NCBI RefSeq assembly: GCF_030537745.1
Contig: NZ_JAUNVI010000007.1
Location: forward strand, 10,267 to 74,266
Length of the DNA: 64,000 bases
Direction of reading: 5' to 3'
Source: Ornithinimicrobium sp.
GTDB taxonomy: Bacteria; Actinomycetota; Actinomycetes; Actinomycetales; Dermatophilaceae
Position 1 is the first letter of the stretch. Every line of letters starts with the position of its first letter. This document shows, piece by piece, positions 10,477-16,959 of the stretch. The position numbers were made by a program, and so were the translations under genes. The notes beneath the pieces are model-generated. The model did no database searches. It was not told the origin of the DNA and saw only the letters and a program-made list of their open reading frames with translations.

Positions 10477-11712
10477 TCAGCCGGCGCGTGCGTCGTTCGG
10501 CGATGGCCTGGCGTCGTCAGCGTCGAGCACGGTCCCGTGCTCGATGGTCGGCAACGGTGAGCGCTGAGGGGTGAGAGAGTCCAGCTCCTCACCCAGGAGC
10601 TCGGCGCTGGTCAGCGGCCGTGGGGTGACGTCGAGGCCAGGCGTCGGGTCGAGGCGGTCCTGGGCGAGGCCGAGCTCTTCCATGCGGCGCGCCGTCACCA
10701 AGACCCTCGACTCGATGCTACCCACCAGCTGGTTGTAAGAATCAACCGAGCGGCGCAGCGCACCGCCCATCGAGCTCAGGTGTCGCCCCACTGTGCCGAG
10801 CCGCTGATGCAGCTCCGAGCCGAGTCGGAGCAGCTCAGCGGCGTTGGTCGAGAGGCTGTCCTGCTGCCAGGTCAACGCGGTGGCCCGGAGCATCGCCAGC
10901 AGAGTGCCGGGAGAGGTCAGCACCACCTTGCGGGACTGCGCATCGTCGTAGAGATCTGGCTCCGCTCGAAGGGCGGCGGCGAGGACGGCGTCACTGGGGA
11001 CGAAGCAGATAACCAGCTCGGGGCAGGCATCAAAGGCGCTCCAGTAGTCCTTGCTCGCCAACCCCTCGACGTGGCCACGCAGTGCCGTTGCGTGTGCGCG
11101 CAACAGCTGGCCAACCTCGTGCGGGGGCAGATCATCACTCTGTGCCCGAAGGAAGGACGTCAGCGGCGCCTTGCTGTCGATGACCAGGCTCTTGCCGCCG
11201 GGGAGGTGGACCACCGCGTCGGGGCGCACTCGGACGTCGTGCCTGCTCACCCCGCTCACCTGCTCGTCGAAGTCACAGTGCTCGAGCATGCCGGGATGCT
11301 CGAGCACCCGGCGCAGCTGCACCTCGCCCCAGGTGCCGCGCACGCCGGAGGAGTTGAGGGCGCCGGAGAGCGCGGCCGTCTGGCGGTGCAGGGCCCGGGT
11401 CTGCTCGGCGACGTCAGCGAGCTGGACCCCGACCTCGCCGAACTGCTGCACCCGGTCACGCTCGAGCGTGCGCACCTGTTCCTCGACCCGGCGCAGGGTC
11501 TGGCCTAGCGGTGCTAGCTGCTGGGCCGCTTGCCGGTCCTCGTCCACAGTGTCGAGGAGGGCCTGCACCTGTTGCTCCAGCCCGTCTCGCTGCGCTTCTG
11601 ACCGGGCTAGGTCGGCGGCCGCCGCCGAGCGCGCGAGCACCCAGCCCAGCGAGATCCCACCGAGGGTCGTGATCAGTGCGAGGGCTGCCGCCTGCCACCA
11701 AAGAAGCTCCAT
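10477..11712 (-). CDS. rmuC: DNA recombination protein RmuC
   Basis: N-terminal TM and coiled coil, RGTWGEVQL, RPDAVVHLPGG, IDSKAP, FVPSD. Confidence 0.93.
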   Translation of the reverse strand: MELLWWQAAALALITTLGGISLGWVLARSAAAADLARSEAQRDGLEQQVQALLDTVDEDRQAAQQLAPLGQTLRRVEEQVRTLERDRVQQFGEVGVQLADVAEQTRALHRQTAALSGALNSSGVRGTWGEVQLRRVLEHPGMLEHCDFDEQVSGVSRHDVRVRPDAVVHLPGGKSLVIDSKAPLTSFLRAQSDDLPPHEVGQLLRAHATALRGHVEGLASKDYWSAFDACPELVICFVPSDAVLAAALRAEPDLYDDAQSRKVVLTSPGTLLAMLRATALTWQQDSLSTNAAELLRLGSELHQRLGTVGRHLSSMGGALRRSVDSYNQLVGSIESRVLVTARRMEELGLAQDRLDPTPGLDVTPRPLTSAELLGEELDSLTPQRSPLPTIEHGTVLDADDARPSPNDARAG

Positions 11713-11834
11713 CACCGCAGCGTGCCAGCACACTCTGACACACCCTGGGGCACCCTCCTGCGCTGCTCGTGCTCGATCCCGTGCACCATCATGCCGCCCA
11801 AGCGATTGCACGCGGCGGGAGGCGGGCGGCCCAA

Positions 11835-11872
11835 CCAGACCGGACGGGCGGTGTGGCCAGACCGGACGGGCG
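11835..11872. repeat. 16-bp direct repeat CCAGACCGGACGGGCG, 2 copies
   Basis: Identical copies at 11835-11850 and 11857-11872 in the rmuC-ychF divergent spacer. Confidence 0.8.
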
Positions 11873-11944
11873 ATGGTGTCCGCAGGAGAGTGACCTGCGC
11901 CCGAGGCGAGAAGCACTCCATACCGCCATTAGACTGTTGACCTC

Positions 11945-13030
11945 GTGGCACTCACCATCGGAATCGTCGGTCTCCCCAATGTCGGCAAGTCGACTCTTTT
12001 CAACGCGCTGACCAAGAACTCTGTGCTCGCTGCGAACTATCCGTTCGCGACGATCGAGCCCAACATCGGCGTGGTCCCGCTGCGCGACGTGCGCCTAGGT
12101 CGGCTGGCGGAGATCTTCGGCAGCACCAAGATCCTGCCCGCGACCGTGAGCTTCGTGGACATCGCCGGGATCGTGCGCGGCGCCAGCGAGGGGGAGGGGC
12201 TGGGCAACAAGTTCCTCGCCACCATCCGTGAGGCGGACGCGATCTGCCAGGTGGTGCGATCCTTCCGCGACGACGACGTGATCCACGTCGAGGGGAAGGT
12301 CAGCCCGCACGACGATATCGAGACCGTTAACACCGAGCTGGTGCTCGCAGATCTGCAGACGCTGGAGAACGCGGTGCCGCGGATGGAGAAGGACCTCAAG
12401 GCCAAGAAGATCGACAAGGCGCTGCTGGACACCGCTCTGGCTGCCCAAGCAGTGCTGGAGGCGGGGGACACCTTGTATGCAGCGGGCGCGGCAGCGGGTG
12501 TGGACCCGACCCTGGTCAAGAATCTCGGACTCCTGACGACAAAGCCCTTCCTCTACGTCTTCAACCTCGACGAGGATGGGCTGACTGACGTGGCGCTGCA
12601 CGAGGAGCTAGCGGCATTGGTCGCACCGGCCGAGGCGATCTATCTCAACGCAAAGCTCGAGTCCGACCTGGCCGACCTCGACGAGGAAGAGGCACGTGAG
12701 CTGCTGGAGTCGGTCGGCGTCGACGAGCCCGGCCTGGATCAGCTGGCCCGGATCGGCTTCCACACGCTCGGCCTGCAGACCTACCTGACGGCTGGCCCCA
12801 AGGAGTCCCGTGCCTGGACGATCCGCAAGGGGTGGACCGCACCACAGGCGGCCGGGGTGATCCATACCGACTTCGAGCGCGGCTTCATCAAGGCCGAGGT
12901 TGTCTCCTTCGCCGACCTGGACGGGCTCGGATCGATGGCCGAGGCTAAGGCCGCCGGCAAGGTGCGGATCGAGGGCAAGGAGTACGTCATGGCCGACGGG
13001 GACGTGGTGGAGTTTCGATTTAACGTCTAG
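11945..13030 (+). CDS. ychF: redox-regulated ATPase YchF
   Basis: GIVGLPNVGKSTLFNALT, NYPFATIEPN, DIAG, TGS domain ending DGDVVEFRFNV. Confidence 0.98.
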   Translation: MALTIGIVGLPNVGKSTLFNALTKNSVLAANYPFATIEPNIGVVPLRDVRLGRLAEIFGSTKILPATVSFVDIAGIVRGASEGEGLGNKFLATIREADAICQVVRSFRDDDVIHVEGKVSPHDDIETVNTELVLADLQTLENAVPRMEKDLKAKKIDKALLDTALAAQAVLEAGDTLYAAGAAAGVDPTLVKNLGLLTTKPFLYVFNLDEDGLTDVALHEELAALVAPAEAIYLNAKLESDLADLDEEEARELLESVGVDEPGLDQLARIGFHTLGLQTYLTAGPKESRAWTIRKGWTAPQAAGVIHTDFERGFIKAEVVSFADLDGLGSMAEAKAAGKVRIEGKEYVMADGDVVEFRFNV

Positions 13031-13055
13031 CGTTAATGATGCGCTCCGTTACACT
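13020..13055 (+). promoter_or_regulatory. probable former higBA promoter/operator
   Basis: Inverted repeat TTAACG-tctag-CGTTAA (13020-13036); -10 TACACT (13050-13055) 6 nt before GTG 13062. Confidence 0.5.
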
Positions 13056-13061
13056 CGCCTC

Positions 13062-13198
13062 GTGATCAGATCGTTCGGCAGCTCGGAAGCTCGGGCTGAT
13101 TCATGCGGCGATGAGTGTCGAGGATCTCCGGATCCCTCCGGGGAACCGCATGGAGCGAGTCATCGGTGATCGCCGCGGACAGCACAGCATCCGAGTGA
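13062..13198 (+). pseudogene. higB: HigB (RelE/ParE family) toxin remnant, internally deleted and frameshifted
   Basis: VIRSFGS in one frame, then RKLGLIHAAMSVEDLRIPPGNRMERVIGDRRGQHSIRV in another (DLRIPPGN..E...GDR.GQHSIR is typical of HigB); C-terminus missing. Confidence 0.8.
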
Positions 13199-13357
13199 AA
13201 GCGGGGCATCCCCGCTGATACGGCGATCCGCTTGGCGCGATACTTCGGGACGTCCGAGGAACTCTGGATGAACCTGCAGTCGAACTACGAGCTGCGGCTC
13301 GAGCGCCGGGTGCTGCGTGACACGGTTGCCGCGATCACTCCGTTACAGGTCGCGTGA
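13199..13357 (+). pseudogene. higA: HigA antitoxin C-terminal remnant
   Basis: KRGIPADTAIRLARYFGTSEELWMNLQSNYEL..., the C-terminal half of HigA/VapI antitoxins; no start codon or N-terminal half. Confidence 0.85.
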
Positions 13358-13691
13358 ATGCCCGAGAGGTCGGGGAGGGCGAACTCCTGGTAGCGTTCGC
13401 CGACGTGATCGTCGGTTGGCCCAACCCCTCGACCGCACACATCGGTCTGTTGATGACAGATGGCGCGCGAGTGGGGCGAGGCCTCGGACGCGCGTTGCAC
13501 ACGGCCGTGGTGGAGAAACTCATCGCTGTCGACGACACTGTTCCGGATTCGGACACCGTCGCGTTCGTATGCACGATCGCCAACGGCGCTGCTTCACCAG
13601 CGGCGACGTAACCCATCTTTATCCAGAAGGGTTCCGCCAAAAATAGGTACCTACCGTACAACCGGGCAGTAACGGGCCCACGCAAGTTCTC
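13354..13691 (+). pseudogene. GNAT acetyltransferase remnant, rearranged
   Basis: + strand: VAFADVIVGWPNPSTAHIGLLM..GRGLGRALH. The expected continuation (LAIVHTNATV, AEPFWIKMGY...GEAAP) is on the - strand at 13554-13637. Confidence 0.7.
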
Positions 13692-13778
13692 CTGGGATCG
13701 GTGGCGGGAAGTCCTCATTTAGGCAATCGTCTGGAGTAAGTTAAATCCAAGCCCCTGATGCAGAAAGACTCGAAGGCT

Positions 13779-14138
13779 ATGCACCACCCCACCCGAGCAA
13801 TCCTTGCCACCGTAGCTATCGCCGCATTCACACTTCCGTTGACCGCCTGCGACAGGTGGAGTTCCAAGTGCGACACGAAGAGCACGTGCTCAATCACGAT
13901 CCAAGGCGATCAATTCCACAACTTCCCACGGCCCTATGACAGCGACCACGGATTGCGCTCGGTGGACCGTATCCGCCTAGTGTCGGCAGTGACGAACGGC
14001 GAGGCGCACTTCCAGGCCGGCGGGGTAGAACCAACCTGCACCCAAGGCAGTAGCTTCACGATCGTCGACACGACGATCACCTGTGACGTAGTAGGAGATG
14101 ACCGGGTCGAACTGACGACAGTTCGCCAGGATAGATAG
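13779..14138 (+). CDS. hypothetical small lipoprotein, Cys-rich, predicted beta-rich
   Basis: Signal peptide with lipobox LTAC, four more Cys, GAAGG before ATG. Confidence 0.65.
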   Translation: MHHPTRAILATVAIAAFTLPLTACDRWSSKCDTKSTCSITIQGDQFHNFPRPYDSDHGLRSVDRIRLVSAVTNGEAHFQAGGVEPTCTQGSSFTIVDTTITCDVVGDDRVELTTVRQDR

Positions 14139-14189
14139 CTACCCTGTGGCTCAGCCTCTTGCAGGAAGTTCTTCGCTTCCACGGGGAGC

Positions 14190-14377
14190 GAACTCCGGCT
14201 TCGAATCCCATGGAGTCGTACATGCCAGCGAACTCGAAGGCTGCTCTGCCATCGTTAGACGGGCAGTCTCTGGCGAAGTCGTGCATCGCGGCGACGCCTT
14301 TCATCACGATCGAAAGCGTCGAACTGCGTCCAGAGTTCGGCCACGGCCGGCTCCCATTGATCGATTGTTGCCGTCAT
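14190..14377 (-). pseudogene. tetratricopeptide repeat protein (TPR_5-like) remnant, frameshifted and truncated
   Basis: AAGGAG RBS + MTATIDQWEPAVAELWTQFDAFDRDE, then a frame change to GVAAMHDFARDCPSNDGRAAFEFAGMYDSMGFEA. Left boundary approximate. Confidence 0.6.
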
Positions 14378-14507
14378 GGCACTCCTTATACCGGGTGGCC
14401 AAGCCTCCTCGAACAGCGTTGAAGCGTGTGAGTTGTGCGTCGCCGTCGCAGGACAGCAAACCGACTCGCGCTGGGCCTCCTGCCCGCACGTGACCTAGGG
14501 TTCATCC

Positions 14508-15161
14508 ATGACGAATCTTCAGGGTGCGGTTGTTTTGGTCGTTGGCGCGACCGGCGGGCTCGGCTCGCGCATCGCCGCTCTGCTGGAGCAGAACGGCGCC
14601 ATCGTTGCCCGATCGTCCAAGTCTGCTGGGCACGATCTGCGCGCCCCCTCTGTGATTGCGGAGGTGCTTGATGCCACGAAGGCGGAGCACGGACGTCTTG
14701 ACGGCCTCGTGGTCGCGTCGGGGGTGGTCGCCTTCGGCGCCGCATCAGATCTTGCCCCCGTCACGGTCGACGAACTCTTCGCGGTGAACGCGACCAGCGC
14801 GATCCAACTCATCGCCCAGAGCGAGCCCTACCTCGCGGCCTCGGCGGTTGCTGGCCGAGAGCCCTTTGTCGTCACTCTGAGCGGCGTGGTCGCTGAGACA
14901 CCCGTCGCCGGTCTGGCAGCCTATTCCGCGTCGAAAGCGGCGCTCGCCGCCTTCGTTGTCGCAGCGGCGCGCGAGTATCGACGCAACGGCATCCGCATCG
15001 TGGATGCTCGCCCAGGCCACACTGCCACCTCGCTGTCAGAGCATCCGATCGCCGGCTCAGCGCCGCGATTCGCAGCGGCGCTGGACCCAGACGTCGTGGC
15101 AGCGCGGATCATCACCGCGATCGTCGATGGGGAGAAGGATCTGCCCAGCACCGCCTTCTAG
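14508..15161 (+). CDS. short-chain dehydrogenase/reductase (SDR)
   Basis: GATGGLG Rossmann motif, YSASK catalytic motif. Confidence 0.9.
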   Translation: MTNLQGAVVLVVGATGGLGSRIAALLEQNGAIVARSSKSAGHDLRAPSVIAEVLDATKAEHGRLDGLVVASGVVAFGAASDLAPVTVDELFAVNATSAIQLIAQSEPYLAASAVAGREPFVVTLSGVVAETPVAGLAAYSASKAALAAFVVAAAREYRRNGIRIVDARPGHTATSLSEHPIAGSAPRFAAALDPDVVAARIITAIVDGEKDLPSTAF

Positions 15162-15182
15162 GCGAGGCCGAGGTGCCGAGAC

Positions 15183-15518
15183 TCACCACCCGAGGGCATG
15201 CAGGCCCGCCTCGGTCATCCTCCCCTCCGCCATGAGCCGCTCCGCGATGACGACGTTGCGAGCCGAAGACGTGCCGCCTTGGCGCCGCGGGGTGAACTTC
15301 TGAAGATACGAGGTGCGGTCGTACGCACGACGAGTGCTCTCGCTCCACCCGTACGCGATGCCGGCCTCAAGGAGGTCGTGAAAAGCCACGGATGGGCGGT
15401 CACTGGAGGCCTTCTCAAGGCGTACCCACGTCCCCGGATGGCGAGCATGGTGCTGCGCGATCCACTCCCACAATTCCGGTACGGTCGCGAAGGCGATCAC
15501 GTCGAATTCGTCTGACAT
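15183..15518 (-). CDS. YdeI/OmpD-associated family protein, N-terminal domain only
   Basis: F....W.W...HH...G.WV...K, AYGWSES, YLQKFTPRR, RN...AERL..EGRMTEAGL; stops at 111 aa. Confidence 0.7.
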   Translation of the reverse strand: MSDEFDVIAFATVPELWEWIAQHHARHPGTWVRLEKASSDRPSVAFHDLLEAGIAYGWSESTRRAYDRTSYLQKFTPRRQGGTSSARNVVIAERLMAEGRMTEAGLHALGW

Positions 15519-15577
15519 GACGTCATCATGTCTGGAGACACCGACACCAGTTCCGCGGCTCTGGTTAGGGTTGTCTC

Positions 15578-16195
15578 GTGGCGACTGATGAAGTCCGGGA
15601 CGCGTACGGCGCACGAGCAGAAGACGTTGCAGGGCTGCTCGGCACCGAGGTGTCTGCCACAGACCCTGACCGCGCCGTCATCGAGCCGTGGGCCGACACG
15701 GTCAAAGGCCGGATCTTGGACGTGGGCTCGGGCACCGGCCGCTGGGCCGGCCACCTGGCGAGTCTGGGCCACGAGGTCGAGGGGCTGGAGCCTGTCGAAC
15801 GGTTCGTCAATATCGCGCGCAAGGCCTACCCGACCGTGGGATTCCGGCTCGGCGCCATCGAGGATCTCACTGACTCAGATGAGCGTTGGGCAGGCATCCT
15901 TGCCTGGTACTCACTCATTCATCTGGGTCCAGACGACCTTCCGCACGCACTGGCAACTCTCCGTTCGTTGCTGAAGGACGACGGCACCATGCTCATGTCC
16001 TTCCTCTCAGGCTCGAGCACCGAGTCGTTTGAGCACCCAGTGGCGACCGCATTTCGATGGCCGTTGCCGGAGATGGCCGCTGCCCTGGACCAAGCGGGAT
16101 TCGTGGTGATTGCCGAACAATGGGACGGACGGACTCCGCACGCCCTCATGCTGGTGCGAGCAGGCCCGCAGCGACCCCTTCGCGCAGGGCGGTGA
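15578..16195 (+). CDS. class I SAM-dependent methyltransferase
   Basis: ILDVGSGTG motif [15 protein letters not shown]. Confidence 0.9.
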
Positions 16196-16959
16196 CCTTG
16201 ATAGCCTCCGCTTCCCAGATCGATGGTCCCAGCTCCGACGTCCAGCCCCGTCGGCGGATGATCGCCTGGGCGCCCGGGACTGACACCCTGATCGCGGTGG
16301 GCACGCTCCTTGGGTTCTGGGGTTGCTATTGGGCCGGGGCAGCCATCAACGAGTGGTTCCTTCTAGTCGGTGTCGTGGTCCTGGGCACAGCCATCCCCGC
16401 GCTGACCGTGCTACGGCAACGAGGAGAAGGCCTGAGAGGTCTCGGCATCCGACGCCGGTTCCTTTTCCTGTCGCTCGTCATCTCGGCGGTGCTCGGGGCG
16501 GGATCTGCCTACCAGCTGATCTACCTGGCTGCGGAGCAAGGCGTGCCGGTCGTGCCGCATCTCATGGCGAACCTCGTGGTCTTGTGGGAGCCATTCTTCG
16601 TCTTTGGCTGGTTGTTCCTCCGCTGGGAGCGCGCTTTCGGTTGGCTGCCGGCGATCCTGCTGTCCGGAATCGGCTTTGCGCTGCAGCACGTCGGTTCGGT
16701 GCCGTTAGAGGTTGCGCTCGGCTTCGGCATGTTTGCGGTGCTGTTTGGGATCCTGTTCGCGCTAGTGCGAAACCTCGCGATCCTGTGGCCGCTGTTTTAT
16801 CCCGTCGCGAGTGGCATCGGGACGCTGCAAGCGGGCTTCGTGATGGGCTGGTCGGACGTTGTCTTGGGCCTCGTGCTGCTCGTGGTGCAGGTCGCGGTGC
16901 TCGCAGTGCTGAGTAAGAGCGCCCGCCCGAGGAGTGCCCACCGAGCACGTCAAGACTGA
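16192..16959 (+). CDS. CPBP (Abi/CAAX protease-like) family membrane protein with degenerate motifs
   Basis: Multi-TM with [16 protein letters not shown] (in place of EExxxRG), FALQH. Start uncertain (GTG 16192 overlapping the upstream stop, or ATG 16258). Confidence 0.6.

Follow-up and report, generated by a model that had tools for sequence, protein, structure and literature searches.

Reordered inverted blocks in a GNAT gene fragment of Ornithinimicrobium sp., a putative scar of short-range template switching

The GNAT fragment, its neighbours and its family

The genome of Ornithinimicrobium sp., a high-GC actinobacterium, is a draft of 3.03 Mb in 130 contigs, of which one stretch of 64,000 nucleotides (the window, to which positions refer unless another source is named) was analysed. 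The YchF protein encoded in it is 79% identical to the best relatives listed, and the organism is Micrococcales-like. The ychF gene of the window is followed by a decayed higB-higA toxin-antitoxin pair (Table 1), which was recognised in six-frame translations and resolved by blastn against locus L002 of a same-genus genome into three colinear pieces on the same strand (13020-13091, 13084-13193 and 13199-13357). The first deletion has removed ~64 nt from within higB, leaving pieces that overlap by ~8 nt (13084-13091), and the second, of ~216 nt, has taken the 3' end of higB together with the 5' half of higA (13193/13199). Homology to higA stops exactly at the stop codon (13357), and homology to the GNAT family begins 4 nt later, within a + strand frame of 85 codons (13354-13611) that starts right after the higA stop.

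The GC content falls to 55-60% between 13500 and 14500, compared with 64-70% in the flanks, and the island of ~1.4 kb around the scrambled GNAT gene is absent from 40 out of 40 relatives searched; low GC content together with absence from these relatives fits an acquired island undergoing erosion. The low-GC stretch also contains an ORF of 126 codons (13758-14138) that has a lipoprotein-like start and lacks a Pfam hit, and in which two assemblies of the genome differ by a single nucleotide (13839).

Table 1. Features of the locus, with their positions in the window
Feature	Position	Strand	Basis or remark
ychF	11945-13030		decayed higB-higA pair downstream
Decayed higB-higA toxin-antitoxin remnant	13060-13357	+	six-frame translations; blastn against L002
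127-codon open frame	13335-13718	-	ORF listing; runs through B, A and C, then the shadow of block N
Block N (GNAT middle, HMM positions 63-114)	13362-13521	+	phmmer, HMM, blastn against L020
Block C' (SESGTVSSTA, family positions 150/151-159)	13524-13553	-	profile score, blastn against L020
Block A' (LAIVHTNATV, family positions 122-131)	13554-13583	-	profile score, blastn against L020
Block B' (L-AEPFWIKMGYVAAGEAAP, AEPFW..EAAP, family positions 131/132-149)	13584-13640 (AEPFWIKMGYVAAGEAAP 13637-13584)	-	profile score, blastn
Right flank, with palindrome TAGGTACCTA (13644-13653)	13641-13720	-	probably holds inverted tail block D'

A phmmer search with the + strand GNAT piece against 1.8 billion representative proteins returned 42 matches, down to 1.8e-14. 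The full-length members are GNATs of ~170-180 aa, in which positions ~61-118 match residues 8-61 of the query; intact relatives pass the Pfam GNAT thresholds (22.6-38.5 bits) and carry no specific NCBIfam name. In the family alignment (A1), the sequence beyond the matched part continues as LR, LAIV.TNA.V, AEPFW..LGY.PTGE.KP, Y..GTV.STA and.VW.RP, in that order, so that the consensus given in the earlier note (LAIV.TNA ahead of AEPFW..LGY) was right. A further 68 homologous loci were located in GTDB species genomes, mostly of Micrococcales and Propionibacteriales; each of them is colinear on a single strand, and the normal block order is found in every one of the 42 representatives and 68 loci, none of which places AEPFW before LAIV.

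The nearest homologue at the DNA level (79% identity) encodes a 171-aa GNAT of Kocuria sp. cx-455 (locus L020), which ends in TLR, LSIVDTNAAA, AEPFWERMGYSATGEAVP, YESGAVSSTA and RIYVRPTS before the stop codon. No closer relative with an intact or identically scrambled gene was found among 60 relatives (by DNA and protein), GTDB species genomes and metagenome contigs, and a 24-nt probe for the junction of B and A matched no other public genome or metagenome contig searched. The Kocuria GNAT gene is followed by an ORF for a Phd/YefM-like antitoxin (L020 3578-3838), and therefore it too lies among toxin-antitoxin genes.

Identity, strand and order of the blocks

The + strand piece (block N) scores 70.6-75 bits with the family HMM and 90 bits in ungapped scoring (HMM positions 63-114/116), and aligns in plus orientation with positions 186-345 of the Kocuria gene at 79% DNA identity (blastn). 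It contains motif A, the acetyl-CoA motif RVGRGLGRA (13468-13494) being aligned to the invariant G97 and G99 of the family. The gene lacks its first ~62 codons (HMM positions 1-62), for which no N-terminal piece was found genome-wide.

The blocks that follow are on the - strand. Minus-orientation blastn matches to the Kocuria gene were obtained for C' (13523-13550 with gene positions 490-463, 89% over 28 nt, E = 1.4e-4), A' (13561-13587 with 398-372, 81% over 27 nt) and B' (13583-13638 with 460-405, 82% over 56 nt), and the similar DNA identity of all blocks to this one gene (79-89%) fits descent from a single ancestral copy and not a mixture of paralogues. When 3000 random 197-nt windows of the same genome were scored in six frames as a control (ungapped, with a profile from alignment A1), their maxima were 13.1, 17.5 and 8.9 bits, compared with 18.6 for block A, 31.0 for block B and 9.2 for block C. 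The - strand GNAT blocks described in the earlier note are thus real, since their scores exceed the controls and their DNA matches agree in orientation, and the coordinates it gave are correct: the + strand GNAT piece to 13527, the - strand ORF 13335-13718, AEPFWIKMGYVAAGEAAP at 13637-13584, LAIVHTNATV at 13583-13554, ESGTVSST at 13550-13527, TTGGCG as the start of the two main blocks (13640-13635 and 13583-13578) and the palindrome TAGGTACCTA.

In a six-frame hmmsearch of the whole genome, the - strand frame, by virtue of block B', is the third best match (13.2-15.3 bits), preceded by the + strand piece and by one distant paralogue. This paralogue is the sole other weak match to the family profile (E = 0.0068), and shares contig C45 with a gene for Ku (C45:14230-14775 and C45:32099-32647). 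Rebuilding the protein by joining N, A, B and C in family order extends the HMM match from 75 to 115 bits and from positions ~63-114 (63-111 in the construct of N alone) to 63-159, the outcome expected if the blocks belong to one gene as the earlier note supposed; the construct in - strand order (B, A, C) scores 88.6 bits and is split into two separate domains.

Read in the + direction, the blocks follow one another as N (+), C', A', B', corresponding to positions 186-345 of the Kocuria gene in plus orientation and to 460-489 (C), 376-405 (A), 406-459 (B) and probably ~489-507 (D) in minus orientation. Both orientations therefore meet at a single locus, with junctions between N and C' (13521-13524), C' and A' (13553/13554), A' and B' (13583/13584), and B' and the right flank (13640/13641). 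The match of block N defines a colinear frame in which window position equals gene position plus 13176, and in this frame an intact gene would have A at 13552-13581 and B at 13582-13635, whereas A' and B' are found 2 nt further on, at 13554-13583 and 13584-13637. C', of 30 nt, fills the slot of a 30-nt linker that is itself undetectable. The boundaries between A and B and between B and C are exact to ~1 base, with neither loss nor duplication, and the three blocks are single-copy and do not overlap; copy-number gain and templated insertion are both absent.

A single inversion would yield C' B' A' and cannot give C' A' B'. At least 3 signed reversals separate -C -A -B from A B C (5 with D and the linker included), which bears out the earlier view that the order goes beyond one inversion. 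The description of the blocks as inverted in place holds for A' and B', 2 nt from their colinear positions, but not for C', which is displaced into the linker slot; in a dot plot against the Kocuria gene there are indeed short anti-diagonals, with A' and B' on the main diagonal and C' off it. Nor are separate in-place inversions the only reading, because one inversion followed by a swap of A and B predicts identical positions for A' and B'.

The remaining pieces are less certain. To the right of B', the - strand probably contains an inverted tail block, D', with two competing placements: by protein, TARLYGR (13670-13650) resembles TARIYVR of the Kocuria protein (p = 0.019 for the unbiased 9-mer, the lower value of the 7-mer being that of a segment chosen after the data were seen), and by DNA, 13691-13674 matches positions 489-507 of the Kocuria gene at 16 of 19 nt with one gap (P = 0.002, a score just one point above the best chance matches across 56 homologues). 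The 32-80 nt to the right of B' match no source in the genome or in the family loci, and for 13641-13760 as a whole none was found elsewhere in either. A YLF block, proposed earlier, and a reading of ENLR as the linker are at chance level (p = 0.44-0.69), and a match to the linker by DNA was rejected as well (P = 0.56-0.93). A continuation on the + strand (TVAFVCTIANGAA.. and PYNRAVTGPRKFSWDRW; PY..W.R) was considered as the true C-terminus and discarded, since its 7.6-8.7 bits amount to noise and similarity to the Kocuria gene in + orientation is lacking (P = 0.26).

The arrangement is seen identically in two assemblies. An independent Logan contig from run SRR24915820 (SRR24915820_6798, 3743 nt) spans 12869-16611 and has the blocks in the same orientation; it differs from the window by two SNPs only (13839 and 16192), and 13354-13720 is identical. 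An artefact of library preparation, amplification or assembly, in which case the arrangement would be absent from the cell, is consistent with the draft state of the genome and with a sequence known from a single sample, exact-protein look-ups of neighbouring genes having returned no source beyond this one Logan contig. It is nevertheless quite improbable, given that two assemblies by different software agree base for base here while differing elsewhere, that a de Bruijn graph has no reason to flip blocks of 30-57 nt that lack flanking repeats of k-mer length, and that the divergence of the blocks from every homologue is as great as that of the + strand part, which is what old genomic sequence would show.

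Coding status of the fragment

The + strand ORF scores 17.4 bits with PF00583 (Acetyltransf_1), below the Pfam gathering cut-off of 20.7. A complete GNAT fold, colinear on one strand from the N-terminal arm through beta7, is not encoded, because positions 1-62 are absent and positions 122-159 are out of order on the opposite strand. On sequence evidence the window is judged to hold a fragment of a GNAT family member and not a member, and the gene is considered a pseudogene on account of its absent N-terminus, its non-coding codon usage (log-odds over 13528-13718 of -7.1 and -8.5 on the two strands), the deletions in neighbouring higBA and the absence of the island from 40 relatives.

Since A, B and C fall in one open - strand frame with an ATG at 13718, the arrangement might be thought programmed or functional, either as a miniature shufflon or invertible switch or as a new gene made from shuffled GNAT pieces. 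The 127-codon frame shares its wobble phase with the + strand GNAT frame, which makes it an ordinary shadow frame of high-GC DNA and helps to explain why it stays open across the + strand part; it has a negative codon-usage score and no Pfam hit, its exact product is absent from a collection of 15 billion proteins, and it is probably not a gene. No GNAT fold could form from a protein that lacks the N-terminal half and has strand beta5 exchanged with helix alpha4. As for a switch, shufflons and other site-specific invertible segments resemble the scar in having adjacent inverted segments at the 3' end of a gene. The Rci shufflon of R64 and the Hin and Gin systems depend on a recombinase and on repeated sites of ~19-26 bp, and their segments measure hundreds of bp. 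All of these are missing here: no inverted or direct repeat longer than 18 nt at 72-90% identity was found in 13300-13800 or at the block borders, and a Pfam scan found no invertase or integrase among the long ORFs in 6-21 kb, which encode transporters, RmuC, YchF, an SDR, a methyltransferase, an MFS protein and IDH. No unusual DNA fold (hairpin or cruciform) was detected (z = -0.7). The blocks are, moreover, far shorter than the looping of DNA in site-specific inversion allows, by an argument made for micro-inversions (PMC8755829). A programmed or functional origin is thus scarcely credible; the scrambled product is predicted to have no function, and nothing suggests that the arrangement is reversible or programmed.

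The earlier note also suggested that the GNAT blocks and the lesions of higBA may record a common process of local DNA scrambling. Evidence for such a process, local or genome-wide, was not found: the higBA lesions are plain colinear deletions, with no inversion found by blastn against the same-genus locus, and a scan of 4618 ORF proteins against the genome for opposite-strand hits within 400 nt, which sees only genes with paralogues and has low power for blocks below ~30 aa, gave 0 candidates for a second split-strand case.

Possible origins of the rearrangement

We infer the ancestral sequence, the microhomologies and the number of events, one or several, and because a homologue of 79-82% identity stands in for the ancestor, breakpoints and microhomologies are placed approximately. 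Within this limit, short motifs can be read at the breakpoints. TGGCG (5 nt) occurs at the start of A and at the boundary of A and B, with the result that both blocks now start with TTGGCG. A GTCGAC palindrome (13529-13534), possibly extending to 10 nt, lies at the junction of N with C', and the linker of the Kocuria gene also holds GTCGAC (GTC GAC ACG CTG CGG), so that the ancestral linker plausibly shared an inverted homology with the end of C. Block B is bounded by GGCG/CGCC, flanking inverted repeats of 4 nt at best when the ancestral flanks are taken from the ~79-82% homologue, and the other junctions have 1-2 nt of microhomology to the ancestor as derived from that homologue. These motifs fit microhomology-guided switching of templates.

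The scar is probably that of a dead, horizontally acquired GNAT gene whose 3' third was rearranged by one complex event or a tight cascade of template switches. A GNAT gene acquired in a low-GC, strain-specific island beside a decaying higBA pair would have lost its first ~62 codons, and its 3' third would have been rearranged at no fewer than 4 breakpoints within ~170 nt, with disappearance of the 30-nt linker. The first switch may have been a strand-switching U-turn at the GTCGAC palindrome, after which a DNA end would have moved repeatedly from one template to another at short homologies in the course of replication or repair; serial replication slippage in trans, FoSTeS and MMBIR are processes of this kind. 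Both short inversions by template switching and replication models with multiple switches are established (PMC5453318, PMC8755829, PMC2621351, PMC4417113).

Certain features sit uneasily with template switching. The blocks are single-copy and abut precisely, whereas replicative switching more often leaves duplications or deletions; the 32-80 nt to the right of B' are unaccounted for by any source found; and template switching does not explain why A, B and C all share one reading frame (a chance of ~1 in 9), although a three-base periodicity of GCG-rich microhomologies, the gene being high in GC, may lie behind it.

The conservative appearance of the rearrangement is explained at least as well by breakage and rejoining, in which several double-strand breaks within ~170 bp would release fragments that are religated in the wrong order and orientation. 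The precise boundaries shared by conserved, single-copy blocks would follow from such an origin, and Ku is encoded in the genome (172.7 bits), so that NHEJ is likely to be available. It is unlikely, however, that loose pieces of 30-57 bp would be retained for religation, the linker has been lost while a sequence of 32-80 nt without a detected source has been gained, and no precedent of such a scale was found in the literature searched; breakage and rejoining is accordingly rated highly improbable.

Alternatively, at least three separate simple events may have accumulated over time in a gene free of selection, either as an inversion of linker-A-B-C and a later exchange of A with B, or as in-place micro-inversions of A, B and D together with an inverted copy of C that replaced the linker. 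Micro-inversions of 17-33 nt that occur singly and in place are known (PMC5453318, PMC8755829), the in-place type (1-3-2-4) amounts to 45% of events under the four-point template-switch model (PMC5453318), and replacement of the linker by an inverted copy of C is a legal event of that model; A' and B' are offset by 2 nt from where in-place inversion would put them, and the locus bears other independent lesions, namely the two higBA deletions and the 5' truncation of the GNAT gene. Such stepwise decay nevertheless requires independent events to have struck three or four shared breakpoints within 120 nt with a precision of ~1 nt, at flanking inverted repeats of 4 nt at best, in a genome where the low-power scan found no other micro-inversion. 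Because definite micro-inversions are rare (59 on the human-chimpanzee path, PMC8755829), three or more that share breakpoints within 120 nt are hardly to be expected, and an origin by stepwise decay is considered unlikely.

Among known rearrangements, those described by the four-point template-switch model (Loytynoja and Goldman 2017, PMC5453318; Walker et al. 2021, PMC7954356) are alike in that segments of tens of nucleotides are replaced by nearby reverse-complement copies, and the positions of A' and B' are those of an in-place fragment inversion of type 1-3-2-4, with the ancestor taken from the 79-82% homologue. The model, however, comprises a single switch and return, successive rounds being explicitly excluded by its authors, and one such event cannot account for the whole difference here, where at least three reversals are needed and three or four inverted blocks abut with C' displaced; it has been documented in primates, and the GNAT scar is in a bacterial pseudogene. 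Definite micro-inversions, for which MMBIR has been proposed as the mechanism (PMC8755829), are pure inversions of 17-33 nt, a range that includes blocks A and C (30 nt each), but are single events edged by inverted repeats of 3-75 nt, whereas in the GNAT scar, read against the Kocuria homologue, several blocks are involved and only the 4-nt GGCG/CGCC and the 6-nt GTCGAC are seen. FoSTeS, MMBIR and serial replication slippage (Hastings et al. 2009, PMC2621351) produce several junctions per locus in both orientations, as here, at short homologies to which the motifs of the GNAT scar may correspond, although their events usually extend over kb to Mb with a gain in copy number, and the GNAT scar covers ~170 nt and appears conservative. 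The junction of N with C' also resembles the strand-switching U-turn at a short palindromic homology that underlies U-turn-like short-range inversions of organelle genomes (Zampini et al. 2015, PMC4417113), but a U-turn by itself would leave the inverted continuation colinear (C' B' A'), in contrast to the C' A' B' observed.

That all junctions arose in one replication event is rather doubtful. In such an event, the nascent 3' end would have crossed to the opposite template strand at GTCGAC and copied the wrong strand backward in stretches of 30-57 nt, re-priming progressively farther ahead in an Okazaki-like manner, which would leave successive blocks inverted, each almost in place. A scar made in this way would be a bacterial counterpart, of less than 200 nt, of chromoanasynthesis, and would belong to a class outside the single-switch four-point model.

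Short template-switch inversions are well described in primates, where they are single events, and the classic form is known from quasipalindromes of E. coli. The GNAT scar, interpreted as the mark of a rare mutation with multiple breakpoints, as opposed to a functional genetic device, would be an unusual variant of these known short-range rearrangements, seen once, in one sample, and relative to an ancestor that is itself reconstructed. Its three or four abutting blocks of 30-57 nt, each reversed and almost in place, would mean that several switches within ~170 nt are possible in bacterial replication or repair, and would provide a concrete case for taking mutation models past a single switch and return. 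The gene being dead, the case has no bearing on cell function. In practice, such scars defeat homology searches, Pfam having seen only a fragment below threshold, and the long open frames that they leave in antisense may be annotated by gene callers.

An intact gene of the RmuC family (10480-11916, - strand; PF02646, 282.6 bits) is located 1.4 kb upstream of the scrambled GNAT gene. In E. coli, rmuC mutants undergo increased inversions at short inverted repeats; the proximity of the two genes in this genome is probably a coincidence.
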